DNA of 64,000 nucleotides from Blautia sp. (GTDB lineage Bacteria; Bacillota; Clostridia; Lachnospirales; Lachnospiraceae), in the NCBI GenBank assembly GCA_023667395.1, contig JAMPAC010000003.1, forward strand, positions 14,972 through 78,971, read 5' to 3'. Shown one piece after another: positions 23,780-50,682 of the stretch; positions within the stretch are counted from its first letter, which is position 1, and each line of letters opens with the position of its first letter. Made by a program: the position numbers and the translations under genes. Under the pieces are notes generated by a model. It did not search any database and had not been told where the DNA came from. It worked only from the letters and a program-made list of their open reading frames with translations.

Positions 23780-23782
23780 GCC

Positions 23783-27473: not shown

Positions 27474-27516
27474 TGATCGAAAAATCATGAAAAATAGGTA
27501 AAGGAGACATAAGGAT

Positions 27517-29294: not shown

Positions 29295-29365
29295 TGTCTG
29301 CCTGTGGACATATGGCTCCAGGTGTGTTTAGATAGAATGGGAAACAGCAGAAACGGAGGTTTGTT

Positions 29366-29692
29366 ATGAGAAGAGAATTATTGCCGATCGGTTCGGTGGT
29401 CAGGCTGAAAGACGTGGACAGATCCATGATGATATGCGGCTTTGCTCCCACCGGACCGGCGAAACCGGGTTATGTATATGATTATTCAGGGTTCCTCTAT
29501 CCGGAAGGATATGGGGAGACCCTGGAAGTGTATCAGTTCGATAACGAGCAGATAGAGCTGGTACAGGCGATCGGCTATCAGGACAGGGAGACTTTCCGCT
29601 ATATGGAAGCGCTGCAGGAAACGATCATGGATGTGAAAGAAAAAACGGCGGCTCAATTTGCGGAAAACAATGGCGCCGGGTCGAAAGAATAG
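29366..29692 (+). CDS. DUF4176-family protein
   Basis: 108 aa. LPIGSVVRLKDVDRSMMICGF...YDYSGFLYPEG matches the DUF4176 signature that is common in T7SSb loci. Confidence 0.7.
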   Translation: MRRELLPIGSVVRLKDVDRSMMICGFAPTGPAKPGYVYDYSGFLYPEGYGETLEVYQFDNEQIELVQAIGYQDRETFRYMEALQETIMDVKEKTAAQFAENNGAGSKE

Positions 29693-29706
29693 AGGAGGGA
29701 TCTGTT

Positions 29707-29985
29707 ATGTTTGAGAGGACATTGCCCATAGGTTCGGTTGTCTTGTTAAAGGGCGCAAATAAGCGTCTGATGATCATAGGCTATTGCAAATACAAGGCCG
29801 GTGATGATGAGACGGTTTATGATTATGCCGGATGCGTTTATCCGGAGGGATTCATGAGTCCGGAAACGACGGCGCTGTTCAACCATGAACAGATTGATAA
29901 AATATTTGCGCTGGGGTATCAGAACCAGCAGCGGTTTGAGTTTGAGCCGAAACTCCGGGAAGCGATCGAACGCGTGAAAGGGTAA
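29707..29985 (+). CDS. DUF4176-family protein (paralogue)
   Basis: 92 aa. LPIGSVVLLKGANKRLMIIGY...YDYAGCVYPEG. Confidence 0.7.
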   Translation: MFERTLPIGSVVLLKGANKRLMIIGYCKYKAGDDETVYDYAGCVYPEGFMSPETTALFNHEQIDKIFALGYQNQQRFEFEPKLREAIERVKG

Positions 29986-29989
29986 GGAT

Positions 29990-31621: not shown

Positions 31622-31654
31622 ACGGGGCATTATGGGAAAAGGTCAGGAAGAAGG

Positions 31655-32404
31655 ATGGCTGGTAAAAGGGAAATTCTGTATTGTGCGAAAACGGACAGGG
31701 GACTGTGCCGTAATGTGAATCAGGACGCAGCGGCTGCGTTTGTACAGGGGGATCTGGGGCTCTTTGTGTTGTCTGACGGTATGGGAGGGCATAGCAGGGG
31801 AGAACTGGCAAGCGCGTGGATCGTCAAAGGATTTGAAGCGTATTGGAATAACCTGCTTATGGCGCCGTTGCCGGACTTTCAGGACTTGGTGACGCAGATC
31901 CGGCAGCAGATATGCCTGTTAAACGGTCAGATCCTGGAGTATTATAACCAGGGACAGGTATGCGGCGCCACGGCAGTGGTATTGCTGATATCGGGCGGCT
32001 GTTATGCGGTATTCTCCGTGGGCGACAGTCGGATATATACCTGCGCAGGCGGCAGGTGCAGTATCCTGACGGTGGATGATATCTGGGACACACTGCCCTC
32101 CACCATAAGCGCTTTTACTCCGGAACAGATACTTCTCCACGAGAATCACGGGAAGCTTGTGCAGGCGGTGGGGACGCAGCCCCAGGTCAATATCCATGTG
32201 AGAACGGATAAACAGAAGCGGGGGCAGGTCTTCCTGCTGTGCAGCGACGGGCTTTTCAAATTCTGCGATGAGGGATGGCTCAGAAAGAAACTGCGGGGCG
32301 TGAAAAGCGAGGCTTCCCTGCAGCAGGCGATGGAGACCTGTTTCCAGGAAGTATACCGCCATGGGGCGGGAGACAATGTGACCGCCATCCTGGTGAGGAC
32401 GTGA
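31655..32404 (+). CDS. PP2C-family Ser/Thr phosphatase
   Basis: 249 aa. RNVNQDA, SDGMGGH, LLCSDGL and GAGDNVTAILV motifs. Confidence 0.85.
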   Translation: MAGKREILYCAKTDRGLCRNVNQDAAAAFVQGDLGLFVLSDGMGGHSRGELASAWIVKGFEAYWNNLLMAPLPDFQDLVTQIRQQICLLNGQILEYYNQGQVCGATAVVLLISGGCYAVFSVGDSRIYTCAGGRCSILTVDDIWDTLPSTISAFTPEQILLHENHGKLVQAVGTQPQVNIHVRTDKQKRGQVFLLCSDGLFKFCDEGWLRKKLRGVKSEASLQQAMETCFQEVYRHGAGDNVTAILVRT

Positions 32405-33094: not shown

Positions 33095-35386
33095 TCAGAT
33101 TTCGCCTTTTGTATAAGCCCGTTCCGCCTCCAGCGTCGGCGGGATGGCGGTATTGCAGCTGCGCAGCTTCTGCATGAACATATCGATGTGGTGCAGCCGC
33201 TGGTTCAGGAGTACGTTGCGGTGGGCGATGATTTCCGTAAACATGGGGTTCTGCTCCAGTTTCTTGCTCAGCGCGGCTGGGAAAGGACAGTAGGTGAGCA
33301 GGATCTTCCTTACTACCTTGTTCAGTCTGGGGGAACCGGTTCCCTCGAAAAATACCCAGACGATATAGTCCCGCACAAACATTTCCTTGAAGCTGTTCTT
33401 TGCCCTCTGCAGGCTGGTCTTGATCTTCTCCTTTGCCTCGTTGGTCAGTTCGTGGTTCTTGCGGTAGAACTGCACATAATCGAAATACTCGCTGGTCAGG
33501 GAACGCTCGGACAGATCGTTCCAGCGGCTGCCCTGTACGCGCTTGCACATTTCCCAGCGGAATTCACCGGTGAGACGCACCATGGTGGTATTGAGATCCT
33601 CCATATGGAAAATGGAGAAGAGCATCCGGGCGGGGGAGTTGCGCTTTTTGCCCTCGATTTCCTGCCACATCACGCCCCTGACGCCCACATTGGGCATCAG
33701 GATCACATCGGGCAGGAATTCCAGATGGATGGTTTCCTTGCCCATGACGGCGGAATTTTCCAGGTCCAGGCTTTCCCGGTAAAATGCGGAATAATCCACG
33801 CTCTTTATCATTTCCAGGGTCTTGCTGATCCCGCTTATGGTGACATAGGACTCTTTCAGGTCTTTCATCACATTGGCCGCCGCAAAGAGGGGGCAGAACG
33901 TGGTGATGCGCCCGGAAGTAATCTTGTTGGCGGAGGCAAACAGGTTTTCCAGTTCGAACCGGACTTTCAGCATGGCGTCGTTTTTCATGGCTGTCGCCTG
34001 TGCCTCGGTAATCTTTCCGGTGGCTTTCTGCTTGTTGATATTGTCAAAAAAGTCCTCGTCAAATTCATTACGGCTGGGGTTCTTGCGGCCGTCATGGATG
34101 GCCCGGATCCAGTCGTAAAAGGTATATACGCCCAACTCGGAATGATCTTCCATGTGGGTGGCCAGATCGTAGAGGATGGCACAGTTGGCCGCTCCCGTCA
34201 GTTCCTCGTCCACGTAGCCGAAGTACAGGAACATGCGTACCGGGACGGGGATGGCGTCAGTCTGCAGGGAACGCTCAAATATGGTGGCGTACAGCGAGTT
34301 GAATTCATTGGTAAGCTGTCTGCGGAGCCTGCTTGCCTCCTCCTCCGAGGAATTTTTATCCTCCAGCGCTTTGTAGGCGATGACATGTTTGCGGAAAGAA
34401 GGCCCGATCTCCAGTTCCAGCCCGGCAAATCCCAGGATCGTGGTCAGGGAGCCGGAAAGTTCCGCCATCATGGACGGATCGGCTGCGGACGGGTCTTTTT
34501 GTCCGTCCGCCTGTAAAGCGACTTCGTCTGCTGATGTGGAAACGTTGTCCAGGAAGCTTTTGATCCTGGGGGCAGCCGTTTTCTGGTCTACAGCAGGGTC
34601 TTTCTCAAATTTCTCGATGATCCGCAGAATCGTGTCATAGAGCGCGCCTGTATCTTCGCAATTTTTACCGAGCCGGAGATACAAAGAGGTCAGCATCTCG
34701 AACAGGTCGTCCCCGGATTCGTTAAAATAGAAAGAGGCGATCTGCTTCCGGTACTGGAACTGCTCTTCCAGACTGGCATAAACCTGTTGGAAATCCTGGC
34801 TTCCCCGGCGCAGGATGCCCATGGCAAGTCCAATATCCTGGCACAGATAGCGGCTGGCCTCCCCGGCATAGGCGTTCTGCAGTCCCAGGTAATAGTCGCC
34901 CAGCCATGTGTCCGGGGTTTCGGCGTTCAGGTAAGCGCTGACATCCCCCAGATTGAGGGCGCGCGGCTGGATGCGGTAACGGTTGCAGAGTGTGGTATAG
35001 TGCCCATAGTCGTTCATCAGTTCCTGATGAAGATTGTCGCAGACCGCTTCCGCCGGAATGATCTGTCCCATGACATTGTTCAGCTGCCGGAACAGCGACA
35101 GCAGGATCAGCTTTGCCATTGCGGCATGGGACCGCAGCACTTTTTCCAGAACGTCGATGTTGTTCAGGGGATATGTCATGATGGTAATGTTGTCCAGCGT
35201 GACATAATCCACAAAATGCACTTCGGAACAGATCTCGCAGATACCGATCACATCCCCTTCCCCCAGCGTATAAGTGCCGCCGGGGTATGTTGCCTGTACT
35301 TTCCCCTTGGTGATGATGTGCAGCGCGGTTACAGGCTGACCGGCTGAATAGATGATTTTCCCTTTTTCCAAAATACTACCCGCCAT
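33095..35386 (-). CDS. Cyclic-nucleotide-binding-domain protein (large, C-terminal region uncharacterised)
   Basis: 763 aa. The N-terminal cNMP-binding-like beta-roll (GKIIYSAGQPVTALHIITKGKV...LGEGDVIGICE) is followed by about 650 aa of unknown function. Confidence 0.7.
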   Translation of the reverse strand: MAGSILEKGKIIYSAGQPVTALHIITKGKVQATYPGGTYTLGEGDVIGICEICSEVHFVDYVTLDNITIMTYPLNNIDVLEKVLRSHAAMAKLILLSLFRQLNNVMGQIIPAEAVCDNLHQELMNDYGHYTTLCNRYRIQPRALNLGDVSAYLNAETPDTWLGDYYLGLQNAYAGEASRYLCQDIGLAMGILRRGSQDFQQVYASLEEQFQYRKQIASFYFNESGDDLFEMLTSLYLRLGKNCEDTGALYDTILRIIEKFEKDPAVDQKTAAPRIKSFLDNVSTSADEVALQADGQKDPSAADPSMMAELSGSLTTILGFAGLELEIGPSFRKHVIAYKALEDKNSSEEEASRLRRQLTNEFNSLYATIFERSLQTDAIPVPVRMFLYFGYVDEELTGAANCAILYDLATHMEDHSELGVYTFYDWIRAIHDGRKNPSRNEFDEDFFDNINKQKATGKITEAQATAMKNDAMLKVRFELENLFASANKITSGRITTFCPLFAAANVMKDLKESYVTISGISKTLEMIKSVDYSAFYRESLDLENSAVMGKETIHLEFLPDVILMPNVGVRGVMWQEIEGKKRNSPARMLFSIFHMEDLNTTMVRLTGEFRWEMCKRVQGSRWNDLSERSLTSEYFDYVQFYRKNHELTNEAKEKIKTSLQRAKNSFKEMFVRDYIVWVFFEGTGSPRLNKVVRKILLTYCPFPAALSKKLEQNPMFTEIIAHRNVLLNQRLHHIDMFMQKLRSCNTAIPPTLEAERAYTKGEI

Positions 35387-40514: not shown

Positions 40515-40549
40515 ATGACAGTTTCCGGTAGGGAAGCTGTCATTTTTTG
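40515..40549 (+). terminator. Rho-independent terminator of purL
   Basis: A 12-bp stem (atgacagtttcc / ggaagctgtcat) with loop ggtag, followed by tttttt. Confidence 0.8.
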
Positions 40550-40573: not shown

Positions 40574-40604
40574 TTGACAAAATTTGTCGGGGGGGGGGTA
40601 CAAT
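40574..40604 (+). promoter_or_regulatory. Promoter with a G10 homopolymer in the spacer
   Basis: TTGACA (40574-40579), a 19-nt spacer containing G10 (40589-40598), then TACAAT (40599-40604). AAAGGAGG and ATG 40632 follow. Confidence 0.6.
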
Positions 40605-40631: not shown

Positions 40632-41633
40632 ATGGACTCAACTCAATTATCAACGGAAGTTTTAAGCAGGGACGAATACAGGCAGTATTTGAGAGAAGTG
40701 TGCCATTATGAGAAGAACCTGCTTATGATCAACCTGTCCATAGATCGGTTAAAAGAACAAATGTCCGGTCTGGGCGTCTCCAACCATATCCGGAAACCTG
40801 TGAAAGGAATGCAGGATACCAGGAGCAAGGCGCCATTGGCCCTGCGTACCAGTGTCATCATGGGATTTATTCCTATCGTGATCATCTCGTTTGCCTTAAT
40901 GGTACTTACGCAAATCATAGCGGTGGGCGTGGCTGCCTTTTTTGTGTTACATGTGATATGGTATCTGATTACGTTTAAAATACTGGACTCGGAGAGAAAG
41001 ACAAAAAACAAGGAGATACAGAAGCGGGACGACAAAGAGCAGGCGGACTATGAGGAAGCCCTGCAGGGGGAGAAACGGCGTCTGGAGATCGAAAACCTCC
41101 AGAGACAGTCCCTTGCCTGCGATATCAGCAATTTTGAGATAGACAGGGGTATCTGTTCGCGCACCCTGAGTGATCTGTATGCGTGCAATATCCTGCACCC
41201 GAAGTATCGGAATTTTGCGGCGGCGGCTTCCTTTTACGATTACATTGACACGGGGAGATGCTCTTCCCTGGAGGGACCCAACGGGGCTTATGCCACCTAC
41301 GAGATGGAGAGCAGGATGGATAAGATCATCAGCAAACTGGATCAGGTTCTGGATAAACTGGAACAGATCCGGCAGAATCAGGAGATGCTGTATTCGGAGA
41401 TCAGGGATGCGTACTACCAGTCCAATCTCCTGGCTTCTGAGACCCTGGACGGGATTAACAGGATTGCCCAGAGGACGGATGAGCAGCTGTACCAGCTGGC
41501 GGAGAACCAGCGCCTGATCGAATACAATACGCGGATCTCGGCGGAGAGCGCGGAGACGATGAAGCATGTGATGTTGTACAAGGAGCGTGTGGGAGGCCCG
41601 CTTCCCGTCAGCTATCCAAATTTCGATCGATAA
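40632..41633 (+). CDS. Membrane protein with two TM helices and a long coiled-coil C-terminus
   Basis: 333 aa. TM pair (VIMGFIPIVIISFALMVL.. / ..VGVAAFFVLHVIWYLITFKIL). No family recognised. Confidence 0.6.
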   Translation: MDSTQLSTEVLSRDEYRQYLREVCHYEKNLLMINLSIDRLKEQMSGLGVSNHIRKPVKGMQDTRSKAPLALRTSVIMGFIPIVIISFALMVLTQIIAVGVAAFFVLHVIWYLITFKILDSERKTKNKEIQKRDDKEQADYEEALQGEKRRLEIENLQRQSLACDISNFEIDRGICSRTLSDLYACNILHPKYRNFAAAASFYDYIDTGRCSSLEGPNGAYATYEMESRMDKIISKLDQVLDKLEQIRQNQEMLYSEIRDAYYQSNLLASETLDGINRIAQRTDEQLYQLAENQRLIEYNTRISAESAETMKHVMLYKERVGGPLPVSYPNFDR

Positions 41634-41660
41634 AGACTGCTGCGGGAGGAAAAGTACGGG

Positions 41661-42407
41661 ATGTGCCCTACGGTTACTGTTTTTGGTTTGCCTATATACA
41701 TGTTTTCCCTTTGTTACATATTGGCGGGCGATACGGCGTTTATGGTCTATTATTTCTGTCCCAGATACCGTGATGATATTCTCAGGGATTTCGTGAAAGC
41801 GATCACTTATGGCCTGCTGGTATCCGTTGCAGGGGGAAAACTTTTGTTTGCAGTCACCCAGATACCCCAGGGCAGGAATTTCTGGGACGCCCTGCTGAGA
41901 GGCGGATTTGTGTTCTATGGAGGCCTCATGGGGGGCGCGGTGGGACTGGCGGTTTTCTGCGCGAGATACCGGCAGAATTTTCTGGACTGGGGCGATATTA
42001 TGTGCAGCCTGCTGCCCATGTGCCAGGCCATCGGCAGGATCGGCTGCTTCTGCAATGGATGCTGCTACGGAAAGCCCTATGACGGATTCGGCTCCGTCCT
42101 GTACCCGGTGAACGGGGTGAAGATCGGGGTCTATCCCACCTGGTTCATGGAGTCCCTTGGCTGTGCGGCGCTGTTTTGCTGGCTCTGGAACAGGCGGGGA
42201 CGGAGAATAAGGGGAAGCGTGGCCAGCGGTTACCTGACCGGATACGGCATCCTGCGGTTCTGCATCGAGTTTTTCAGGGGGGACGAACTCCGGGGAGTCT
42301 GGGGGCTTCTTTCCACTTCGCAGATCATCAGCATCATCATGGTGCTGGCGGGGGTGGGAACAGGGATATACGCATGGAAATATAAGGAGCAGAACAGACT
42401 TTGGTGA
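41661..42407 (+). CDS. lgt: Prolipoprotein diacylglyceryl transferase-like protein
   Basis: 248 aa, polytopic. GRIGCFCNGCCYGKP corresponds to the Lgt GR.GNF.N.E..G block and YPTWFMESL to HPTQLYES. Confidence 0.65.
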   Translation: MCPTVTVFGLPIYMFSLCYILAGDTAFMVYYFCPRYRDDILRDFVKAITYGLLVSVAGGKLLFAVTQIPQGRNFWDALLRGGFVFYGGLMGGAVGLAVFCARYRQNFLDWGDIMCSLLPMCQAIGRIGCFCNGCCYGKPYDGFGSVLYPVNGVKIGVYPTWFMESLGCAALFCWLWNRRGRRIRGSVASGYLTGYGILRFCIEFFRGDELRGVWGLLSTSQIISIIMVLAGVGTGIYAWKYKEQNRLW

Positions 42408-42451
42408 CTGCTCTTTATTATAAATAGGACAACGGAGGATGAGGAGGAACT

Positions 42452-43522
42452 ATGAGTAAATTTGAATGTAAGAATTGTGGCTTTATAGTGGAGCAGGCGA
42501 CACAGCCGGGAAGCTGTCCCCTCTGCGGCGGGACTGAATTTACGGCGAGTGGGAGCACGCAGGCCGATGCTGCGGCGAACAGATCCGCCAGGGCGTCTGT
42601 TCCTGTGGGCACTGTGACGGACAGGCCTGTCAGGGAAGCAAATCCTGCGCCCTCCGTCCCGAGAAACAGCTATGTGCAGTTTCGGGAGTTCCCGTCGGTG
42701 CAGAGGGATCGGGTGAAGAAAGAACTGGAAGAAAAGATAAATGCAATCCAGGAGGAGGCGGCAGCGTATATCGGGCGGCAGGAGGCAAAAAACAAGAAGA
42801 AAAACGATAGTGCTTCCGGGGGATTATTTGGATTGGTGTTTGGTCTTGTTGGATTTGTCGGAACTTGCAGCGGATCCTGTTATATTATTGATACACCAGG
42901 ATTTCAAGGTTTTCTCCAGGTACTTTATGCATCCTTGTTTGTTGGGATTGTGCTGGGTGTGGGGATGCTTTTTCTGGGAGACGCCCTTACAGGAGCAAAA
43001 AAGAAAGATTATGAGGTCATAGACATAAAGAATGATTCTGCGGAGGAGGAAAAGAAAAGCAGCCAGGAGGCAGCCCGCAGGAGTATCAGTGAGTATGTGC
43101 AGTCCTTTGACAGGGCGGTAAAGGAGTCCGTGCAGAGATTTATTTCCAGCAAAACCACGGAGGACATTGGAAACCGTATCCTGGAGGGGTTCCTGACCGC
43201 AATCGGGAATGCGCCCAGGGATGCGCGGCGAATGGATATTGTGGTGAAATGCCAGTACTCGGTATATGCCAATCAGGTGCAATATGGGGGTGGGATTTTC
43301 AGCTTTTCACAGAACCACTGTTCCAACCTGGCAGGCCCTGTGGAACAGGCGGCCCTGGGGCAGGCCATAGCCACATACCTGGAGGTACATGTGTTGGAGA
43401 AGTATGACAGGGATCCCTGCGGCTCTGTTCCCCAGATCCTGATCGACAATGAGGATGACGCGGCGTCACGCACCGTTACCGTGACATATAAGGCAGTGAA
43501 CGTATATTACAGGGGAGCATGA
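42452..43522 (+). CDS. Zinc-ribbon membrane protein, paralogue 1
   Basis: 356 aa. N-terminal CKNCG...CPLCGG ribbon, TM helices in the centre. The C-terminal domain is alignable with the 44289 gene (QYSVYANQV/SYSVYTDRI; ALGQAIATYLEVHVLEKY/ALSIAIAAAVKILVMQKY; TVTYKAVN/TMTYTAKN). Confidence 0.65.
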   Translation: MSKFECKNCGFIVEQATQPGSCPLCGGTEFTASGSTQADAAANRSARASVPVGTVTDRPVREANPAPSVPRNSYVQFREFPSVQRDRVKKELEEKINAIQEEAAAYIGRQEAKNKKKNDSASGGLFGLVFGLVGFVGTCSGSCYIIDTPGFQGFLQVLYASLFVGIVLGVGMLFLGDALTGAKKKDYEVIDIKNDSAEEEKKSSQEAARRSISEYVQSFDRAVKESVQRFISSKTTEDIGNRILEGFLTAIGNAPRDARRMDIVVKCQYSVYANQVQYGGGIFSFSQNHCSNLAGPVEQAALGQAIATYLEVHVLEKYDRDPCGSVPQILIDNEDDAASRTVTVTYKAVNVYYRGA

Positions 43523-43556
43523 AGGACGTTCCCTTAGGATGACAGGAGGAAGATAC

Positions 43557-44246
43557 ATGGCAGTGTACATATGTACTATTTGCGGGGAGAAGTATGAATG
43601 TGATGGGAAGCCCAGGGAATGCGCCGTATGCGGAAACACGGATTTCCGGGTGGAGGAGAAGACTGTGCCCACATTCCAGGGCGGGACATCCCGCGAACCG
43701 GACACAGGGGATATCGGGCATCCGCCCGTGAAGCAGGATATGACGCCCCCGCCGGTGCAGGAGAGCCGGGTGCAGACGGACTGGAGGCCTGAACCGGTGA
43801 AAGGGAGTCCGGTGCAGGAGAGCCAGGTGCAGGCGGACTGGAGGCCTGAACCAGTGAAAGAGAATCCGGTGCAGGTGGAATGGAGACCGGAACCGGTGCA
43901 GGAGAGCCAGGTGCAGGCGGAATGGAGTCCGGAACCGGTGAAAGAGAAACAGGTGCAGGCGGAGCGAAGTCCGGAATCGGTTCGTGAAGAACCGGGGGAC
44001 AAGGGCAGAGTGAAAATAGGGGGCGCCCTGTGGGCCGTGATCCTGATCGCGCTGGGCAGCCTGGTACTGTGTTTCAAACGCAGCCTTATCCCTTTTCTAT
44101 ACGGCACATTGGGCATAGGCCGTATTATCCGGGGGGTGTATCCGGAGACCGTTGTCGTATCCATGGGCGTTTTACTGACCGGGTGCGGGATGCTGCTGGC
44201 TGTGATATGGCTGGTCGGTTTGTTGAAGCGTCTGCGGAAAGCGTGA
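43557..44246 (+). CDS. Zinc-ribbon membrane protein, paralogue 2, with internal PVQESQVQA(D/E)W repeats
   Basis: 229 aa from ATG 43557 (AGGAGGA SD). MAVYICTICGEKYECDGKPRECAVCG ribbon, repeat region, C-terminal TM helices. Confidence 0.65.
   Translation: MAVYICTICGEKYECDGKPRECAVCGNTDFRVEEKTVPTFQGGTSREPDTGDIGHPPVKQDMTPPPVQESRVQTDWRPEPVKGSPVQESQVQADWRPEPVKENPVQVEWRPEPVQESQVQAEWSPEPVKEKQVQAERSPESVREEPGDKGRVKIGGALWAVILIALGSLVLCFKRSLIPFLYGTLGIGRIIRGVYPETVVVSMGVLLTGCGMLLAVIWLVGLLKRLRKA
43752..43975 (+). repeat. 57-bp in-frame tandem repeat, about 4 copies with one truncated
   Basis: Units start at 43752, 43809, 43866 (short) and 43893. They encode PVQES(R/Q)VQ(T/A)(D/E)W(R/S)PEPVK(G/E). Confidence 0.85.
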
Positions 44247-44288
44247 GTAGAAACGGCAGGGAATGGATTAAAAACAGGAGGAAGAAGT

Positions 44289-45281
44289 ATGGCAGCGTAC
44301 ATATGTAATATTTGCGGAGAGAAGCATGAATGTGACGAAAGACCTGGGGAATGCGCCGTGTGCGGAGGCGCGGATTTTCGGTTGGAGGGGGAGAGAGTGT
44401 CCCGCAGCGAAACATATCGCGAACCGGATATGGGGGATATTGATCATCTGTTTGCCAGGCATAACATGGCGTTCCCCCCGATGAAAGCGAAGCAGGACAG
44501 GAAAGACCAGCAGAAATTTGAGTCGGACGCGAGGAAGAAAGCTCAGGCAGATTCGGAGGCCATGAAGAAGAATATTCCCAGTTCGGCAGTGGATTTCAGG
44601 TATGCAGTGATCATGTATGTGGCTGGTGTGGTGGAATTGGCGGGCTGGGCATCTTGTGCTTTCACAGTAACGCCCATACCCTGGCTCGTCCTTGCCATAT
44701 CGGCGGGAATTGTATTGTGGGTTAACCAGAAAAGCTATGATAAATATATGAAAAAGGCAAAAGCGGCTGCAGAGCGTGTCCTGACAGACGCGGAAGACGA
44801 TATCGTCAGGTATAACAACGCGCAGGATGCACAGTACAGGGCATACTGTGATGAATTTTTGAGAGCCAGCCAGAAACTCAGCGAGGAGTATGTGGGAACG
44901 GAGTTTGTCATCCGGATCGCCGAGTGGATCTTCCAGCCCTTTGACAGGCAGATCAGCCAGACGAACAGGGAGGAGAGGATTGCGGAGATCAGGGAGGTTT
45001 ATTCCTACAGTGTCTACACGGACAGGATCATTTGCGGCAATGGTACTTACGATTTCAGGGGGCACGGCCTGAGGGATGTGGACGATCCCGTCTGCCAGAC
45101 GGCTCTTTCCATTGCCATCGCGGCGGCTGTGAAGATATTGGTCATGCAGAAATATCCCGTGGATATTTCCGGCACGCCCATAGCCGTTTCTACGGAGGTG
45201 GCCTACCGTGAAAATTATCTTGTGGAGACCATGACTTATACCGCGAAGAACGGAAATTATAATGCGATGAGCGTCTGGTAA
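44289..45281 (+). CDS. Zinc-ribbon membrane protein, paralogue 3
   Basis: 330 aa. MAAYICNICGEKHECDERPGECAVCG is nearly identical to the ribbon of paralogue 2. TM helices and a C-terminal domain shared with paralogue 1. Confidence 0.65.
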   Translation: MAAYICNICGEKHECDERPGECAVCGGADFRLEGERVSRSETYREPDMGDIDHLFARHNMAFPPMKAKQDRKDQQKFESDARKKAQADSEAMKKNIPSSAVDFRYAVIMYVAGVVELAGWASCAFTVTPIPWLVLAISAGIVLWVNQKSYDKYMKKAKAAAERVLTDAEDDIVRYNNAQDAQYRAYCDEFLRASQKLSEEYVGTEFVIRIAEWIFQPFDRQISQTNREERIAEIREVYSYSVYTDRIICGNGTYDFRGHGLRDVDDPVCQTALSIAIAAAVKILVMQKYPVDISGTPIAVSTEVAYRENYLVETMTYTAKNGNYNAMSVW

Positions 45282-45288
45282 CAGCGCG

Positions 45289-45400
45289 TAAAGATTTTCT
45301 AAGTCAGTAAAGTACACTGACTAAGAAAATCTACGGTTCCGCTTTGCGGAACCTATACGCGCGGAAGAATCGCAGGTTGTTTCGCAGGGAACCGGGTGTT
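45289..45400. repeat. Dispersed repeat family B, copy 1
   Basis: aaagattttctaag-(stem)-aaagtac-(stem)-ctaagaaaatcta, then acggttccgctttgcggaacctatacgcgcggaagaatcgc. It matches the copies at 49344 and 55176. Confidence 0.8.
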
Positions 45401-45430
45401 TGAACCATTAAAGATGGACAGGGAGTCAGT

Positions 45431-48400
45431 ATGAAGAAGATAGAAACGATTTACACGGAAATTTATGACAGGTTGAGAGAACTTGCGGAGGCAAGGGAGG
45501 AAGCGGAGAGGCAGCTGCAGGAGGTTTCGGTCAGGAACAGGCAGCTGTTCCAGGAACTGGATGAGAGGATAAACGCGGATCTGCAGGGCATTACCGAGAA
45601 GATGAGCCGGGTCAACGTATTCATCAATTTTGCCAGGGAGCATACTTCCGTCTGCGAGATGGCGTCAGGGGCCATTGCCTATGATACCACCGAACTGAAC
45701 CGTCTGATGGTCTTGGTGGAGCATTCGGCCACGGACGATATGAATGCCCGCAGGCTTTTCACGGTGGCGACCGGGCAGTTGAAGACCCTTGTGGCACAGA
45801 AAGCGTCGCTGCAGAATGCGGGGGATCAGGAGAAACAGAGCCTGCGTGCGCGCGTGATGCCTGACAGGCAGGCGGCGGTGGAGAGGAAAGACGCAGCCGT
45901 GGAGGCTTTCCGGGCTTATTTCCAGAGCCCCCAGTGCCAGGATTCCCTGAGCATGCTCAAGGAACAGACCGTACCGGAGCAGACGCTGAGCATGGGACTG
46001 CGCCGGGCGGATTTCCCCGTGCCCGAGGAACTGACGGAAGTGGCGGCGGAGACGCTGGGAGATTTATGGGACAGGAACACGCAGAGCATTTCCATACCGG
46101 TGACCATTGGCGTGGAGGAAGGAAATGTCTGTGTGGCGGAGTATACCAACCAGACGGAGAACGAGGTGCTGTCCGGTATCCGGGACATCCTGCTGAAAGG
46201 GATCGGCTTCACCGGGGGAGAGCCCCAGTACATCTGTGTGTTTGACCCCGTGCGTTATAATGATTCCGCGCTGGGGACGCTGGAGCCCCTGGCGCTGGGG
46301 GAGAGCCGCCTTATCGACAGGGTGCCCACATCCAAGGAGGAATTACAGCGGAAGCTGGACGATATCATCAATAAAGGCAACCTGGAGGATCAGCTGGCGG
46401 CCAGGAATGAAAAATATGAGCGGGCCGTGAAATTTTATGTATTCCACAATTTTCCCCAGGGCTACGACGCGTCCATGCAGACCAAGGTGCGCCAGCTGTG
46501 CGTTAATGCGCCCCATGGCAGGATGAACATTTTCCTGACCCACAACTGCTCGGAGGACGAGAACAGGTTCATGGCCCAGAACGAGACCTATAATTATCTG
46601 AGGGAATTTGGCAGGATCATCACTGTCGCAGGGAACGAATACAGCACGGACTGGGATAAGAACGGCAATCAGGCCCCGTTCTGGTGGAACCAGGCGCCCT
46701 CCAGGATGCCGGAGGATCTGCTGGAGAGGGCAAGACAGAAAAAGGAACAGAAGAACCAAGGCAAAAATGATTATGACGCCCAGGTAGGGATACAGGAAAT
46801 GCCCGCATACCGCAAGGGCGTTCGGCGGCTTACCGACATCCCCTACGGCGTGGACGAGAGCGGGCAGCTCCTGACGCTTGACTTTGAGAACAGTAATTTT
46901 GCCACATTCATATGCGGCGCGGCGCGTTCGGGAAAGTCAACGCTCCTGCATACCATTTTGACCGGCATTTTCCAGCAGAATCATCCTGACGACGTGGAGG
47001 TATGGCTGATCGATTTTAAGATGACGGAATTTTCCCGTTATATCGGACACCTGCCGCCCCATGTAAGGTATATCATCCTGGATGAGTCGCCGGAACTGGT
47101 GTATGACATTATCGACCGTCTGACGGAGATCCTACAGAAACGACAGAGTATTTTTAAGGGAATGTGGCAGAAGCTGTACGACGTCCCTGAAGAAAAGTAT
47201 ATGCCTGCCATGTTCATCGTCATCGACGAGTTTTCCATTATGAGCCAGATCATTGCGGATTCCGCCACAAGCGGGGAAAATTACAGCGAAAAGCTGCAGG
47301 CGCTCCTGGCCAAGGGCGCGGCGCTGGGGATGCACTTCATCTTTGCCAGCCAGGGCTTTACCAGCGGTACCAGGGGACTGAACGATTTCTCCAAGAAGCA
47401 GATCCAGCAGCGGATCGCCATGAAGACGGAACTGGCGGAGATCAAGGCCACCCTTGACCTGCTCAATGCAAGCGAACAGGATTACGCCATGATGGAACAG
47501 CTGCCCGTCCACAAGACGCTGACCCGCATGCCTGTGGATGAATACGGCAATCATCTGTGCTTGGCGGACGTCCTGTATATTTCCGATTATAAGAAGCAGG
47601 AACACCTGATCGATACGATCAATGCGAATATGCAGCAGAAGCCAAGGTACGACGTGGGGGATATTCCCGCGTACATATACAAGCAGCCCATGATCATTGA
47701 CGGCAACAGTTATCACCCTTTTTCCGATAAGAAAGATAAGATGATGGAGTATCTGGAGAAAAGGAAGCCCCTGCTCCGGTCGGAGGGGCTGTGGGACATT
47801 TTCTGGGGCGAGCCCAGACGCATGATGCACGTCTTCCCGGCGCAGATTGCGGACAGTTACGGGGAAAATGTTTTCATGCTTGCCCCCATCCATGAGAAAG
47901 AGGCGGCTTTGAGCGTCCTGCTTTCCATGAAACAGTCCCTTGACATGCAGGGCAGGTTCGTGCAGCTCTGGACCACCAGGAAGCACGGCATGTATCAGCA
48001 GCTGGTGGGCGACTGCGGCTGGTCTTCCGTGAAGCGTCTGGATCTGGAGCAGGTCTGCCAGGCCATCGCAGACTGCAGGAAGAAGATCGAGGACAAGAAG
48101 CCGGGCAATACCTTTTTCATTCTTCTGGGCTTTGAATCCCTGATGATGGATATGAGTTTCCAGGAGAGGAAAGCGGCTCCGGGACAGATGCAGACACAGA
48201 CGCAGGCACAGCCGCTGAAAGATTTCAGCAGTATGTTCCAGCCTGCGGGCGCACCACGGGCAGGCGGACTTGATCTTCTGAGCCAGATGAACATGAAAGG
48301 GCAGGGCGGAAGCGCCGCTGTCGCAGGAGGGCAGACAGACGTGACAGCCGGGGTACAGGACGAAAGCCGTTTTGCAGTCGCAGGGATGCAGCCGGGCGAA

Positions 48401-48892
48401 ACAGCTGGGGTACAGGGCGGAAATGTCTTTGCCGCAAATGTGCAGTCGGGCGGAATGACAGGAGCGCAGGCAGGCGCAGGTATGCCGTCGGGTGCAGGCG
48501 CGGCGAAACAGTCTGCCGATGAACCGGAATCACCCCTGTATGACGCGAGGGAGGATCTGAAATATATCCTGACCCAGGGTCCCAGGCTGGGCTACCATTT
48601 CCTGATGGTGTTCCACACCATGGGCGAGTTCAAGCAGATGAAGATTGCGGCCGGGCTGTTCAAGCATAAGGTCATGTTCCGTGCGCCCAAGGCGGACGTA
48701 TTCGAAATGGTGGGAGCCCAGGGGAAAGACGTGGCAGCCCTGGGAGACCATTCTTTCCGCTATACCAACGGGCTGGACAGCTTGAGTTTCCGGCCATTCC
48801 TCCATGCAGGCCTGTCCCTGGACGGATGGAAAGTCAATGAGGACGGATCCGTGGCGGAAGAAGTGCTGGAAGAGGAAAATTATTTATTATAA
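45431..48892 (+). CDS. TM-less FtsK/SpoIIIE-family ATPase with three EssC-like modules, only the middle one intact
   Basis: 1153 aa. N-terminal coiled coil. The middle module has Walker A GAARSGKST and Walker B MFIVIDEF. The flanking modules lack P-loops. A Q/G/A-rich insertion of about 130 aa lies in the last module. No TM helix. Confidence 0.8.
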   Translation: MKKIETIYTEIYDRLRELAEAREEAERQLQEVSVRNRQLFQELDERINADLQGITEKMSRVNVFINFAREHTSVCEMASGAIAYDTTELNRLMVLVEHSATDDMNARRLFTVATGQLKTLVAQKASLQNAGDQEKQSLRARVMPDRQAAVERKDAAVEAFRAYFQSPQCQDSLSMLKEQTVPEQTLSMGLRRADFPVPEELTEVAAETLGDLWDRNTQSISIPVTIGVEEGNVCVAEYTNQTENEVLSGIRDILLKGIGFTGGEPQYICVFDPVRYNDSALGTLEPLALGESRLIDRVPTSKEELQRKLDDIINKGNLEDQLAARNEKYERAVKFYVFHNFPQGYDASMQTKVRQLCVNAPHGRMNIFLTHNCSEDENRFMAQNETYNYLREFGRIITVAGNEYSTDWDKNGNQAPFWWNQAPSRMPEDLLERARQKKEQKNQGKNDYDAQVGIQEMPAYRKGVRRLTDIPYGVDESGQLLTLDFENSNFATFICGAARSGKSTLLHTILTGIFQQNHPDDVEVWLIDFKMTEFSRYIGHLPPHVRYIILDESPELVYDIIDRLTEILQKRQSIFKGMWQKLYDVPEEKYMPAMFIVIDEFSIMSQIIADSATSGENYSEKLQALLAKGAALGMHFIFASQGFTSGTRGLNDFSKKQIQQRIAMKTELAEIKATLDLLNASEQDYAMMEQLPVHKTLTRMPVDEYGNHLCLADVLYISDYKKQEHLIDTINANMQQKPRYDVGDIPAYIYKQPMIIDGNSYHPFSDKKDKMMEYLEKRKPLLRSEGLWDIFWGEPRRMMHVFPAQIADSYGENVFMLAPIHEKEAALSVLLSMKQSLDMQGRFVQLWTTRKHGMYQQLVGDCGWSSVKRLDLEQVCQAIADCRKKIEDKKPGNTFFILLGFESLMMDMSFQERKAAPGQMQTQTQAQPLKDFSSMFQPAGAPRAGGLDLLSQMNMKGQGGSAAVAGGQTDVTAGVQDESRFAVAGMQPGETAGVQGGNVFAANVQSGGMTGAQAGAGMPSGAGAAKQSADEPESPLYDAREDLKYILTQGPRLGYHFLMVFHTMGEFKQMKIAAGLFKHKVMFRAPKADVFEMVGAQGKDVAALGDHSFRYTNGLDSLSFRPFLHAGLSLDGWKVNEDGSVAEEVLEEENYLL

Positions 48893-49050
48893 AAACAGTC
48901 TCGGAACGGCAAATGCAATGTGCCCAAAGGCACATGAAAGAAATTTCCAGCTGCGGTGTGTGCAGATGAAAATTTCTTTCAGGACAAGGGCATTGAAGTG
49001 AAGAGAGCGGAATAAGTTCCTGCAAGCAGGAACTGGAATAGAAATAGGAG
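48890..49050 (+). repeat. Dispersed repeat family A, copy 2
   Basis: It starts on the ATPase stop codon and ends ...gttcctgcaagcaggaactggaatagaaataggag, which supplies the SD for ATG 49061. Confidence 0.85.
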
Positions 49051-49060
49051 GTATGATTGT

Positions 49061-49339
49061 ATGAGCGATGAAAACAGGTTTCTGGAAGTTGAATCCCTGC
49101 AGACTCTGATCAATGCGGTGAGTAACTATCTGGAGGAACTGGGGGTGAGTTACAATTTTCTGGCGGAGGCCGCCAATGTCTGCCAGATGGCCATGGGAAG
49201 CGACGAGATCGCCATGAAACAGATCAACCGGATGTATGAGGCGCTGGAAGGACTCCGCGTGGCGGCGCTCACGGCGCAGGAAGTAGCGCAGGATATGCAG
49301 ACAAGCCTTATGCAGGCGGAGGCAATCAGAAACATGTGA
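49061..49339 (+). CDS. Small helical-hairpin protein, WXG100-sized with no Trp in the turn
   Basis: 92 aa with two predicted helices. The turn MAMGSDE sits at the position where a WXG motif would be. Confidence 0.55.
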   Translation: MSDENRFLEVESLQTLINAVSNYLEELGVSYNFLAEAANVCQMAMGSDEIAMKQINRMYEALEGLRVAALTAQEVAQDMQTSLMQAEAIRNM

Positions 49340-49343
49340 CAAG

Positions 49344-49450
49344 TGTGCAAAGATTTTCTAAGCCCGCAAAGTACGCGGACTAAGAAAATCTAAGTTGCAC
49401 ACAGAAGAATGCCAAGAGCAGGCATTCTTCTCGGAACCGAATGGTTCCGT
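49344..49450. repeat. Dispersed repeat family B, copy 2
   Basis: tgtgcaaagattttctaagcccgcaaagtacgcggactaagaaaatctaagttgcaca, then hairpins agaagaatgcc/ggcattcttct and cggaacc/ggttccg. Confidence 0.8.
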
Positions 49451-49538
49451 GGGATTGGTTTGTGCCGCCGGAGGCGGCATGTTTGGAAGTGCGGGAGAAG
49501 TTCCCGTCCGGAGTTGGGATTACAGGAGGTAAAGAGGG

Positions 49539-49841
49539 ATGAAATTATCTTTGAATCAGGAATCCGCAGACGCATTGAGGGTTCTGGCGGATCAGATGCC
49601 CCGTGCCATCGAGCAGATCGAAGACGCCACGGAGAGGCTGATGGCTGTGTACGCCCAGGTGGAAGGAACCCTGGGGGTGCATGAACCACATTTCGCCGAT
49701 ATGCTGAACCGGCTGAGGAATGCACAGATGATGGCGCAGACCCCGGTGCTGGCGCTGCCAATGAAACTGAATGAGGTGGCAAATGCCATTGAGGATTATA
49801 TCAGGACCAACCCGGATTCGGGCAGTTATCTGGGAAACTGA
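49539..49841 (+). CDS. Small helical protein, zero-frame product of a possible frameshift gene
   Basis: 100 aa with AGGAGG SD. It ends ...L G N * with the heptamer G_GGA_AAC in phase, immediately before TGA. Confidence 0.6.
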   Translation: MKLSLNQESADALRVLADQMPRAIEQIEDATERLMAVYAQVEGTLGVHEPHFADMLNRLRNAQMMAQTPVLALPMKLNEVANAIEDYIRTNPDSGSYLGN

Positions 49842-49957
49842 CAGACCCGTCTTCCGGGTATTCCGGAAGCGCGCCGGGAGGCGGGGGCGGTACAGGCACA
49901 GAGGATGTCAAGAAGCTGGCGCCCAAGCGGGATATCAATTCCGCGAGGCAGTCAGCC

Positions 49958-50149
49958 ATGGAGAGCATCGAGGCTCGGATGGAAGTAAAAAGGGACGACC
50001 TGCGCGACAAGGGAATGGCGGACGGAGAGCAAATGGAGCGCATCATCGCCATGGAGAAGGAAGCGGCCATCGAGCGCATGGAACAGGACCTGAAAGGTGA
50101 GACTGAGCCGAATACATGGGATGACCGGCACTTTAAGGTGAAAAGATAG
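49958..50149 (+). CDS. 63-aa charged helical ORF, either independent or the -1-frame extension of the 49539 gene
   Basis: The -1 frame is open from 49793 to 50149. ATG 49958 has a weak GAGG 9 nt upstream. Confidence 0.4.
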   Translation: MESIEARMEVKRDDLRDKGMADGEQMERIIAMEKEAAIERMEQDLKGETEPNTWDDRHFKVKR

Positions 50150-50169
50150 GAAAAGGTGAAAAAAAAGAT

Positions 50170-50682
50170 ATGAAGAACGATATGAAGAAACTGATCATGG
50201 CAGTCATGACAATGGCAATGATGATAAGCCTGGCGGCATGCGGCGATGGTTCCATGGAGCTGTCTGACAAAAAATACCAGGAAGTCCTGAACATTATGGG
50301 AATCGACGGAGTAGAGGAGGCAGTGGATAACGTGGTGCTGGAGAGTATCCTGTATGACAGTATACCGTCCGAGGACTATCGTGATGCAGACGATAATGAC
50401 TCTGTGTGGAAAGCTGCATCGGAACTCTGCGGCGAACAGAAAGATAATTACTATTACAGCTGCTGCGGCCTGGGCACGAATCAGGAACAGGCGGAGGCAA
50501 TGCGGAAGGAATATAAGGATTATCTGCAGATGCAGGGCTATGAATACAGGGAAACGAACGCCAACTTTGGCGATATTTATGTAAAGGGCAATTGTGCGGT
50601 CATTCTCCAGGAAGTCAGGGGTCCCGTACACTGGAGCGATAAGACCGAGGGACAGTATGGGCTGGTCACCTGGTTCTATTGA
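50170..50682 (+). CDS. Lipoprotein
   Basis: 170 aa. Signal peptide with lipobox (MISLAAC-GDG). Confidence 0.75.
   Translation: MKNDMKKLIMAVMTMAMMISLAACGDGSMELSDKKYQEVLNIMGIDGVEEAVDNVVLESILYDSIPSEDYRDADDNDSVWKAASELCGEQKDNYYYSCCGLGTNQEQAEAMRKEYKDYLQMQGYEYRETNANFGDIYVKGNCAVILQEVRGPVHWSDKTEGQYGLVTWFY

Follow-up and report, generated by a model that had tools for sequence, protein, structure and literature searches.

The conserved core of the cluster at positions 40,632 to 50,682 of the window (the whole 64,000-nt stretch of DNA analysed here) consists of g2, g3/g5, g6, g7 and g8. With a probability of roughly 0.55, this core is a self-contained T7SS-like export module for small WXG100-like hairpin proteins, which in related genomes would export polymorphic antibacterial toxins as well. 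The observations behind this reading are the domain architecture, the colinearity of the ATPase g6 with EssC, the conserved synteny, the WXG-like hairpin modelled for g8, and the fusions of its domain to toxins that are followed by immunity-like ORFs.

The ten ORFs of the cluster, g1 to g10, are all on the + strand and, as the earlier note had claimed, lie behind a promoter-like sequence with a G tract. This element was read from the sequence at 40574..40604 (+ strand) and comprises TTGACA (40574–40579), a 19-nt spacer with a G10 tract (40589–40598) and TACAAT (40599–40604). A strong terminator hairpin of purL (about 40515–40548, fold z = −4.3) was found upstream of it. The 81% relative L010 carries G6 where the window has G10, with an equal total length; length variation was not observed. 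The intergenic gaps from g1 to g10 were 27, 44, 16, 42, 149, 168, 199, 116 and 20 nt. The ORF of g4 opens at 43539, and its likely start is the ATG at 43557 (MAVYICTICGEK), which is preceded by a Shine-Dalgarno sequence and matches the N-terminus of g5. With this start, the g3–g4 gap becomes 34 nt, and the statement that the first five genes are separated by 27–44 nt is therefore correct.

The g6 gene (45431..48892, + strand) encodes an EssC-like ATPase of 1153 aa in which no TM segment was detected by hydropathy and no FHA domain by domain search. In its AF2 model (pLDDT 79), a helical hairpin/coiled-coil stalk (residues 4–177) is followed by three alpha/beta domains, identified as a degenerate D0-like domain (185–445), an active FtsK domain (470–715) and a degenerate third domain (735–1145) interrupted by a disordered Q/G/A-rich insert (912–1032). 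Only one Walker A motif (GAARSGKS, residue 496) is present, and like the Walker B motif (FIVIDE, residue 595) it falls in the middle domain. The description in the earlier note of three EssC-like modules without FHA or TM parts, with Walker motifs kept only in the middle one and the last one split by an insert, was thus borne out, as was the tie to EssC and the T7SS. The best Foldseek matches of g6 were EccC and EssC (4nh0, E 7e-19; also 4n1a, 4lya and 5fv0), and comparison of the ATPase family (A1) with EssC sequences by hhalign gave a probability of 99.2 (E 7e-20). Residues 116–642 of g6 are colinear with residues 346–889 of the EssC encoded in the window, from just after TM2, which ends at about residue 350, through D0 and D1.

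The ATPase family is sharply bounded, with 71 clusters at 33–100% identity, after which the matches fall from E 1e-142 to 1e-11. Its known members are all from metagenomic contigs or uncultured MAGs. Synteny was analysed in 20 independent loci in which the family ATPase is complete; 18 are from Clostridia (MAGs) and two from Eggerthellaceae. The order 2-TM protein (TM2C), ATPase, G7 (~90 aa) and G8 (~97 aa) was found in all 20, G7 and G8 being inverted in L020 alone, and four partial or frameshifted loci (L019, L022, L028 and L041) followed the same order as far as each extends. The view of the ten genes as one cluster holds family-wide only for g2, g3/g5, g6, g7 and g8, as g1 and g9 were found only in L010 and L012, and g4 and g10 only in the window. 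Some loci adjoin integrases, a resolvase or Mob/relaxase genes, which suggests that the module moves as a unit; the two Eggerthellaceae loci place it in Actinomycetota MAGs as well. No family members were found in phage, IMG/VR and plasmid (PLSDB) collections. A more distant cluster with a TM-less ATPase (L029) contains genes of kinase, VWA and PP2C type, together with a Gln_amidase toxin and a WXG100 match below threshold; by this gene content, the wider TM-less clade is linked to T7SS-type loci.

Immediately upstream of the ATPase gene lies g5 (44289..45281, + strand), a TM2C copy that holds this position in every related locus. Domain search, hydropathy and alignment confirmed that g3 (42452..43522, + strand), g4 (43557..44246, + strand) and g5 are mutually paralogous, each with an N-terminal CxxC...CxxC rubredoxin-like ribbon and two TM helices. 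The proteins g3 and g5 also carry a conserved C-terminal domain of ~180 aa, for which no Pfam or PDB sequence match was obtained. This domain is missing from g4, a truncated paralogue that shares 44% identity with g5 over its first ~100 aa and contains P/E/V/Q tandem repeats of a 14-aa unit (42-nt DNA repeats across 43752–43981); g4 is absent from the relatives L010 and L012. The idea that the zinc-ribbon proteins are the membrane partners of the ATPase stands in so far as the 2-TM family invariably adjoins it, whereas the ribbon itself is limited to the clade of the window, the conserved features being the two TM helices and the C-terminal domain. As no similarity was detected between the 2-TM protein and the membrane region of EssC, and the C-terminal domain is unmatched, a role as the membrane half of the motor is proposed purely from gene position.

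A second membrane protein of the core, g2 (41661..42407, + strand), is an Lgt-like 7-TM paralogue whose signature (GRIGCFCNGCCYG) is altered. It matches Pfam LGT end to end (E 1e-40), yet it scores below the NCBIfam Lgt equivalog cut-offs. Relative to E. coli Lgt (5azb/5azc), residues R143, G154, Y235, R239 and E243 are kept, whereas N146 and E151 are both replaced by Cys and H103 by Tyr. Across the six Lgt paralogues compared, the two Cys are invariant and the H103 position is occupied by Tyr or Trp. In contrast to the housekeeping lgt, the g2 gene is dedicated to the module. Twelve of the 20 complete loci, as well as L026, have an Lgt-like gene immediately upstream of the 2-TM gene.

The ATPase gene is always followed first by a g7 homologue; g7 itself (49061..49339, + strand) is a helical protein of 92 aa with an AMGSD turn motif at its centre. 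The 100-aa g8 (49539..49841, + strand) is a WXG100-like helix-turn-helix protein with a conserved LGxH turn, and its AF2 model is a hairpin (pLDDT 87.5) whose top 31 PDB fold matches by Foldseek are all Esx/WXG100 proteins, with the weak E-values (0.04–0.5) expected from a simple hairpin. Both proteins are devoid of Trp, and neither reached the Pfam WXG100 model by sequence. The two small WXG-like hairpins without Trp of the earlier note were thus recovered, the hairpin of g8 as a model and that of g7 as a probable fold.

The decisive functional clue, missed by that note, lies in polymorphic toxins that carry the g8 domain as their N-terminal prefix. A profile search with g8 among 1.84 billion representatives gave 499 matches. 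Among the best 150 of these, 45 are proteins of 160–619 aa with the g8 domain near the N-terminus, starting at residues 1–6 in 44 and at residue 20 in one. A toxin-type domain was recognised by Pfam in about 20 of the 45: ADPrib_exo_Tox (8), Endonuclea_NS_2 (3), Gln_amidase (2), LHH (2), and Ntox15, Colicin-DNase, WHH, ART and a C39-like peptidase (one each). Such toxins are encoded directly 3' of the ATPase, G7 and G8 genes in both cases examined separately and in seven of the loci compared. Small immunity-like ORFs follow most of the prefixed toxins examined (including those of L013, L022 and L041), and DUF7675 follows one toxin family in L002, L039 and L040. The protein g8 is this domain on its own, free of the toxin part that it precedes in related loci. 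The window cluster itself encodes no g8-prefixed toxin, so that the local cargo would be g7 and g8, possibly together with proteins encoded elsewhere.

The remaining genes appear to be accessory. The 333-aa g1 (40632..41633, + strand) has a hydrophobic stretch at 67–119, probably two TM helices, and a long C-terminal coiled coil, and it is clade-specific, its homologues being confined to L010 and L012, which are the closest of the relatives examined. These are also the only relatives that keep g9 (49958..50149, + strand), a highly charged protein of 63 aa. A resemblance was observed between g9 and the linker segment of a metallopeptidase-like effector in L016. The lipoprotein noted earlier is g10 (50170..50682, + strand; 170 aa), predicted from its lipobox LAAC; no homologue was found in any related locus, although the L010 contig ends about 480 nt past g9, and its membership of the system is doubtful for this reason.

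In the proposed export module, g6 would be an EssC-type motor minus the FHA and TM parts, what is left being the stalk that follows the membrane region, a degenerate D0, a single catalytic FtsK domain and a degenerate domain on the substrate side. We infer that g6 hexamerises and that its N-terminal coiled coil docks on the 2-TM proteins g3/g5 through their cytoplasmic C-terminal domain. These proteins would supply the two membrane helices per protomer that are normally EssC's own, giving a 'split EssC'. The proteins g7 and g8 would leave the cell as a hairpin pair, and in sister loci the g8-prefixed toxins would be exported paired with g7, in a process presumed to be autonomous from a canonical T7SS. 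The Lgt-like protein may be a frequent accessory membrane subunit or modifier.

A possible but rather doubtful alternative is an accessory module, in which the soluble ATPase acts with g7/g8 on a special class of substrates, recognising them, unfolding or escorting them, and handing them over to a canonical membrane EssC encoded elsewhere. The receiving machine in the window would be the FHA-EssC system at 18707–23779, 17 kb upstream, which belongs to a full T7SSe/j-like cluster (EssC with FHA and TM regions, WXG100, kinase, PP2C, VWA and FHA proteins). Its presence and the lack of a TM helix in g6 fit this alternative, as does the ESX precedent, in which the soluble EccCb partners the membrane EccCa; there the split falls after D1, with EccCa being TM-DUF-D1 and EccCb D2-D3. 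However, g6 matches the membrane-proximal part of EssC (stalk-D0-D1) and not the distal D2-D3 represented by EccCb. Moreover, no second FtsK/EssC gene was found within ±10 kb in any of the other loci; in the window, housekeeping genes and a terminator separate the cluster from EssC. Together with the invariable neighbourhood of a dedicated 2-TM protein, the apparent mobility and the presence in Actinomycetota, this favours an independent system with its own membrane partners, the second of the two options offered earlier; the 'surface remodelling' attached to that option was unsupported.

An intracellular conflict system (anti-phage or abortive infection), in which invading DNA is sensed by the FtsK-like ATPase and the linked toxins are then set free or activated within the cell, seems improbable. 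The PADLOC matches to FtsK-domain defence proteins (mad8, E 1e-15; SspH, E 2e-10), the mobile elements adjoining some loci, and the nuclease and ADP-ribosyltransferase toxin domains would agree with it. Nevertheless, those matches are limited to the generic P-loop domain, whereas the EssC colinearity runs through the stalk and D0, the membrane partner is conserved, and viral and plasmid collections contain no family members. In addition, secreted polymorphic toxins have the same layout of a WXG-like prefix, a variable toxin at the C-terminus and, downstream, a small immunity-like ORF (PMC3482391). Finally, a coupling ATPase of a mobile element, of TcpA or TraB type and serving DNA translocation or conjugation, is suggested by the FtsK/SpoIIIE domain of g6, its Foldseek matches to FtsK motors and pCW3 TcpA (E about 1e-8 to 1e-11) and the relaxase and Mob genes flanking the module in L005, but is very hard to sustain. 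EccC/EssC match far better, none of the genes conserved with the module encodes a relaxase or T4SS protein, the module is invariably accompanied by WXG-like hairpins and toxins, and it is not found in PLSDB plasmids.

The preferred export module shares with EccCa/EccCb the division of a T7SS motor between membrane and soluble polypeptides. In contrast to EccCb, the soluble g6 starts right after the TM region and holds the D0 and D1 equivalents, and the 2-TM protein is not detectably related to EccC. The gene combination, which the earlier note had not recognised, was likewise not found as a described system in the literature on T7SSa-j, where the ATPase of every published subtype is membrane-bound (for T7SSb-j of Bacillota, Garrett, Higginson & Palmer 2024, PMC11217815). 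The module resembles T7SSb-j (EssC/TsxC plus EsxA/TsxA) in its Gram-positive hosts, its FtsK/SpoIIIE-type motor colinear with the stalk, D0 and D1 of EssC, its putative substrates or co-substrates of ~100-aa helix-turn-helix type, and its polymorphic toxins with a WXG-like helical prefix beside small helical partners and immunity genes. It differs in that g6 has neither TM helices nor FHA, and three P-loop domains, one of them catalytic, instead of four; its presumed membrane element belongs to a 2-TM family of its own, whose C-terminal domain is novel. The module often includes an Lgt-like paralogue, YukD/EsaB-like, EssA, EssB and EsaA proteins were not found within g1–g10, and the hairpins lack WxG and any Pfam WXG100 or LXG match.

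The 'mobile versions of T7SS' of Zhang, de Souza, Anantharaman, Iyer & Aravind 2012 (PMC3482391, Table 1 footnote 6) follow the same ATPase domain logic as g6, whereas the hosts of the g6 family are Clostridia and Eggerthellaceae, and its loci combine polymorphic toxins with a 2-TM partner and an Lgt-like gene. The prefixed toxins recall the LXG toxins and their Lap1/Lap2 targeting factors (Whitney et al. 2017, PMC5555719) in their N-terminal helical targeting domain, variable C-terminal toxin, small helical partners and downstream immunity genes. In contrast to the LXG domain of about 200 aa, however, the g8 prefix is of about 95 aa, has an LGxH turn, does not match Pfam LXG, and is genetically tied to a TM-less ATPase instead of essC.

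The sixth gene (g6) of the ten-gene plus-strand cluster at 40632-50682 of the window (g1 to g10) encodes a motor that derives from EssC but lacks its membrane part, and this motor is accompanied by WXG-like hairpins and by an invariant neighbour with two TM helices. The ten ORFs are all present as the earlier note had described them, and the gaps between them measure, from g1 to g10, 27, 44, 16, 42, 149, 168, 199, 116 and 20 nt, the g3-g4 gap becoming 34 nt with a better-supported start of g4 at 43557. The cluster is flanked by housekeeping genes, purL on its 5′ side and an HDOD protein plus carAB on its 3′ side, and it opens a new transcription unit, as purL ends in a strong terminator hairpin that is followed by a TTGACA/TACAAT promoter with a 19-nt spacer. 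Within this spacer, the sequence has a homopolymer of ten G residues (40589-40598), through which the promoter may be phase-variable, since slippage to G8 would result in a spacer of 17 nt. At the promoter of L010, an 81% identical relative among the loci fetched for comparison, G6 plus other bases were found, with the total length unchanged; variants of the tract that differ in length were not seen. Several of the ten genes are outside the conserved system; homologues of g1 and g9 were detected only in L010 and L012, the closest relatives examined (ATPase identities of 81% and 61%), and g4 and g10 were found in the window only, among the loci compared.

The relationship of g6 (1153 aa) to the ATPases of type VII secretion systems (T7SS) was supported by sequence and by structure. 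In Pfam, a single FtsK_SpoIIIE domain was recognised (residues 470-579), and the NCBIfam matches to EccCa (E 7e-23), EccCb (E 3e-19) and EssC (E 2e-16) were partial and far under the full-length cut-offs. The protein matched EccC 4nh0 in PDB sequences (phmmer, E 1e-16), and in Foldseek the top ranks were occupied by EccC 4nh0 (E 7e-19), EccC ATPases 2-3 (4n1a) and EssC (4lya, 5fv0), FtsK motors, KaiC and TcpA being ranked far lower. An AF2 model obtained with 48 family members as input (mean pLDDT 79) contained soluble domains only: a long helical hairpin (4-177), an alpha/beta domain without Walker motifs (185-445), the catalytic domain (470-715, with GAARSGKS at 496 and FIVIDE at 595) and a further alpha/beta domain with a degenerate P-loop (735-1145), into which a Q/G/A-rich disordered segment is inserted (912-1032). 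The alpha/beta domains thus number three, with Walker A occurring once in the protein; no FHA domain was found in the Pfam scan, and no TM segment was detected by hydropathy in g6 or in the family ATPases of the related loci L001 and L009, the three proteins scanned. The previous description of g6 as three modules with only the middle one active, lacking FHA and TM regions, was confirmed.

When g6 was compared by profile-profile hhalign with seven EssC sequences, the window's own included, its residues 116-642 were colinear with EssC residues 346-889 (probability 99.2). As TM2 of the window's EssC is located at about 330-350, the alignment starts directly past this helix and, therefore, g6 corresponds to EssC from its first post-membrane residue onwards, comprising the stalk helix, D0 and D1. 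One extra degenerate domain follows the D1 equivalent. The likeness to FtsK is confined to the P-loop domain (NCBIfam FtsK, E 0.023; PDB FtsK, E 3e-3).

The g6 family is sharply bounded and consists of 71 clusters of 33-100% identity and about 1050-1150 aa, after which the E-values fall from 1e-142 to 1e-11; no name was attached to its members in any of the source databases. Related loci were drawn from metagenome assemblies and GTDB species representatives, and their ORFs were searched with HMMs of the window proteins and of the first homologues. Twenty independent loci encoded a complete family ATPase, and their hosts were Lachnospiraceae, Oscillospiraceae, Blautia, Faecalimonas, Ruminococcus, other Eubacteriales and two Eggerthellaceae MAGs. 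The same order was observed in all 20, namely one or two copies of a gene for a membrane protein of the g3/g5 type (TM2C), the ATPase, a g7-like gene and a g8-like gene, with the inverted g7 and g8 genes of L020 as the sole deviation, and it was maintained over the extent of the partial or frameshifted loci Porcincola L019, Faecalimonas L022, Christensenellaceae L028 and L041. Twelve of the 20 complete loci, and the partial L026 as well, have a gene for an Lgt-like protein, represented by g2 in the window, immediately 5′ of the TM2C gene, and an overlap of a few bases between both genes was common. Directly 5′ of the Lgt-like gene of L001, an agr-like/LytTR regulatory set was also present (4818-8251), formed by a response regulator, two LytTR proteins and an HATPase_c_5 kinase fragment.

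Several loci are adjoined by integrase, resolvase, Mob or relaxase genes. In L005 (600-23300) the module is enclosed between two integrase/Mob/relaxase/primase units, in L002 a phage-type integrase (7709-8740) directly precedes it, and in L041 a resolvase (3118-3729) is found before it. These flanks suggest that the module is horizontally mobile, which fits its occurrence in both Clostridia and Eggerthellaceae. No family members were found in PLSDB plasmids, GenBank phages or IMG/VR.

Each TM2C protein has a charged segment at its N-terminus, then two TM helices, a coiled-coil stretch and a C-terminal domain of about 180 aa with the conserved motifs ADR..H, FDF, EQxALAxAIA, DxSG and NGNY. No similarity to this domain was found among Pfam families, PDB sequences or EssC, and the matches of the TM2C profile in these sets were discarded as membrane-helix noise. 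The zinc ribbon proposed in the earlier note for these proteins is present, yet it is restricted to the window, L010 and L012. Based on this N-terminal ribbon and on the two TM helices, both termini are predicted to be cytoplasmic. The product of g4 is a window-specific partial duplicate that has the zinc ribbon and two TM helices and lacks the C-terminal domain; between ribbon and helices it carries about 4-5 copies of a P/E/V/Q-rich tandem repeat of 42 nt (14 aa) at 43752-43981.

The Lgt paralogue g2 covers the Pfam LGT family from end to end (E 1e-40) and scores under the NCBIfam equivalog cut-offs. Lgt enzymes have the signature GRxGNFxNxE and the catalytic residues R143 and R239. Compared to E. 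coli Lgt (5azb), R143, G154, Y235, R239 and E243 are kept, and N146, which is reported to be essential in the E. coli enzyme, is replaced by Cys, as is E151, with H103 replaced by Tyr. The motif GRxGC[FY]xNGCCYG was invariant in six paralogues (g2 and those of L001, L005, L007, L010 and L012), and Tyr or Trp occupies the H103 position across the paralogue family. In all 19 distinct TM2C proteins from loci that contain the Lgt-like gene, the outer end of TM1 carries a Cys, against only 4 of 11 from loci without this gene (Fisher p = 1.6e-4, for a post hoc comparison uncorrected for phylogeny); topologically, a lipobox Cys would occupy this position. The family is thus a dedicated Lgt paralogue with an altered active site, encoded in a putative secretion locus.

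Regarding the small proteins encoded 3′ of the ATPase gene, the model of g8 (pLDDT 87.5) consists of a helix (7-41), a turn, in which the conserved LGxH of its family is located, and a second helix (46-90). Its best 31 fold matches in the PDB were all Esx/WXG100 proteins, including B. anthracis EsxB, S. aureus EsxA, GBS1074 and G. thermodenitrificans EsxA, with TM-scores of 0.6-0.7 and weak E-values (0.04-0.5), as expected for a bare hairpin. Neither g7 nor g8 contains Trp or matched Pfam WXG100, and g8 had no LXG match by sequence either, its only Pfam match being a weak one to EspC (E 0.014). The LDXD prefix of Zhang et al. was considered for g8; the LGxH turn motif is no obvious fit to it. 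Proteins of the g7 family share an AMGSD motif at their centre, and most of those outside the clade of the window have a C-terminal Y-(E/N)-(D/E). We infer a hairpin fold for g7; the claim that g7 and g8 are paralogues was dropped, their hhalign comparison not being significant (probability 4%).

In the first related loci, a g8-like domain was found at the start of proteins of 276 and 469 aa. A search of 1.84 billion representatives with a profile built from 22 g8 homologues retrieved 499 proteins at E <= 1e-3, 165 of them at E <= 1e-10. Among the best 150 of the 499, 45 were long g8-prefixed proteins (160-619 aa), in which the domain starts at residues 1-6 in 44 cases and at residue 20 in one. 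Such fusions emerged only in this exhaustive search; when g8 alone or an alignment of 10 sequences served as the query of word-indexed searches, only short stand-alone copies were returned. A Pfam domain was recognised in about 20 of the 45, corresponding to ADP-ribosyltransferase exotoxin (8), Endonuclea_NS_2 (3), papain-fold glutamine deamidase (2), LHH (2) and single matches to Ntox15, Colicin-DNase, WHH, ART and a C39-like peptidase. With a conserved N-terminal domain joined to varying toxin-type domains, the g8 family has the architecture of polymorphic toxins, whose N-terminal module sets their export route (Zhang et al., 2012, PMC3482391). The hairpin domain prefixes polymorphic toxins of the same operons; two toxins that were looked up independently were encoded directly 3′ of ATPase-g7-g8, and prefixed toxins occupied this position also in L002, L007, L013, L022, L024, L025 and L027. 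In the window, g8 stands alone and the cluster encodes no prefixed toxin.

Small ORFs were located 3′ of most prefixed toxins, those of L013, L022 and L041 included, and often overlap the toxin stop codon. Pfam assigned those of L002 (15264-15467), L039 (2919-3128) and L040 (1832-2035) to DUF7675 (about 67 aa), and in the three loci the stop/start overlap is with a g8-prefixed protein of 463-469 aa from one toxin family with an unassigned toxin domain, for which DUF7675 is a candidate immunity family. Proteins with an HExxH motif and without a g8 prefix (264-332 aa) are encoded 0-18 nt 3′ of a stand-alone g8 in L001 (13827-14675), L016 (13912-14706), L018 (13904-14767) and L005 (13914-14912). 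From this close arrangement in L001, L016 and L018, g8 may also serve as a separate adaptor for putative HExxH effectors. The g9 protein of the window resembles residues 57-104 of the HExxH protein of L016. The g8 prefix is a new marker with which antibacterial toxins and immunity genes can be mined from uncultured Clostridia and Eggerthellaceae of the gut and rumen, its yield being 499 representative clusters with long fusions in about 30% of the best 150.

We assign a probability of roughly 0.55 to an autonomous toxin-export system based on a split EssC, with g6 as the soluble motor and a TM2C protein as the separate membrane half. In such a system, g6 would hexamerise and its N-terminal coiled coil would dock on the cytoplasmic domain of TM2C, and TM2C would contribute two TM helices to each protomer, the same number as in EssC. 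Hairpin pairs and prefixed toxins would then be exported for interbacterial antagonism, and the cargo of the window copy could be g7/g8 or proteins encoded elsewhere.

Alternatively, the substrates could be handed to a canonical T7SS encoded at another place in the genome, such as the one 17 kb upstream in the window; a second FtsK/EssC-like ORF was found within ±10 kb at none of the fetched loci except the window. An accessory apparatus of this kind is less likely than an autonomous one, because the part of EssC matched by g6 is the membrane-proximal half (stalk-D0-D1) and not the distal D2-D3 half represented by EccCb, and because g6 travels with its own membrane protein. An FtsK/SpoIIIE DNA translocase, with an N-terminal membrane domain and a C-terminal gamma winged-helix domain for DNA recognition, does not correspond to g6, which has no TM segment and ends in a degenerate P-loop domain, and assignment to a defence system was discarded, the PADLOC matches being limited to the generic FtsK domain. 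Of the interpretation in the earlier note, the link to T7SS, the dedicated membrane partners and the lack of a published description held, whereas the connection with toxins had been missed.

The canonical cluster upstream (13604-32404), of a non-T7SSb type, encodes an FHA-EssC of 1690 aa, a WXG100 protein of 173 aa, VWA/TPR/Zn-ribbon proteins, a Ser/Thr kinase with TPR repeats, LytTR, a VWA+FHA protein and PP2C. Its EssC has an FHA domain, two TM helices and three Walker A motifs, whereas g6 has neither FHA nor TM helices and a single Walker A motif. A LytTR protein (23783-24517) follows this EssC, and a 763-aa protein with only a weak N-terminal cNMP-binding match is encoded between the T7SS cluster and purL (33095-35386, minus strand). 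More distant TM-less FtsK-like ATPases from other Clostridia (L029-L038) also have helical proteins of about 90 aa encoded directly 3′; those of L029, L030, L032, L033, L037 and L038 have about 940-1210 aa and P-loop domains 25-37% identical. In L029 (4950-17045), the sole locus of these scanned with Pfam, genes were found for a kinase, for VWA and PP2C, for Sel1/TPR proteins and for a Gln_amidase toxin that has a helical prefix, in addition to a WXG100 match under the Pfam cut-off (E 6e-5). From these ~90-aa partners and from the T7SS-type genes of L029, TM-less EssC-like motors appear to form a wider, undescribed radiation. Zn-ribbon membrane proteins are encoded 3′ of the ATPase in L030, and in L038 an ORF similar by eye to DUF7675 (5826-6032) follows a 232-aa protein.

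No prior description was found in the literature on T7SS of Lachnospiraceae and Eggerthellaceae, on TM-less EssC or on novel secretion systems. The only precedent found for the logic of the g6 ATPase was a table footnote on three-domain ATPases (Zhang et al., 2012, PMC3482391), whose group, in contrast, belongs to Gram-negative lineages and has solo WXG domains. Besides T7SSa and T7SSb, T7SSc-j have been defined, all with a membrane-bound TsxC (Garrett, Higginson & Palmer, 2024); the upstream cluster of the window resembles T7SSe/j, and no Lgt-like or TM2C component is part of any of T7SSa-j (Garrett et al., 2024). We rate the cluster as a variant of type VII-like secretion. Like the generic T7SS ATPases, g6 is an FtsK/SpoIIIE-family protein homologous to EccC/EssC, but these are membrane-bound, with two TM helices that form the channel, and hydropathy detected none in the three g6-family ATPases scanned; T7SSb EssC has an N-terminal FHA and four domains (D0-D3), and g6 no FHA and three alpha/beta domains. 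None of the T7SSb partners EsaA, EssA, EssB and EsaB/YukD was found among g1-g10 with Pfam and NCBIfam, and TM2C and the Lgt-like gene are the conserved neighbours in place of these core partners. In current T7SS models, the transmembrane helices of EssC/EccC are central to the channel. A tentative reading of low probability is that the cluster is an eleventh, structurally divergent T7SS subtype, with an entirely cytosolic motor and a channel from an unrelated 2-TM protein, possibly lipidated by the Lgt paralogue. If true, neither the TM-helix channel of EssC/EccC nor a membrane-embedded ATPase would be universal to type VII-like export, and Lgt-type enzymes would be involved in the assembly of secretion machines. 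As a conserved relative that is linked to toxins and combines a cytosolic motor with an unrelated 2-TM protein, the module provides a natural test of which parts of a T7SS are essential.
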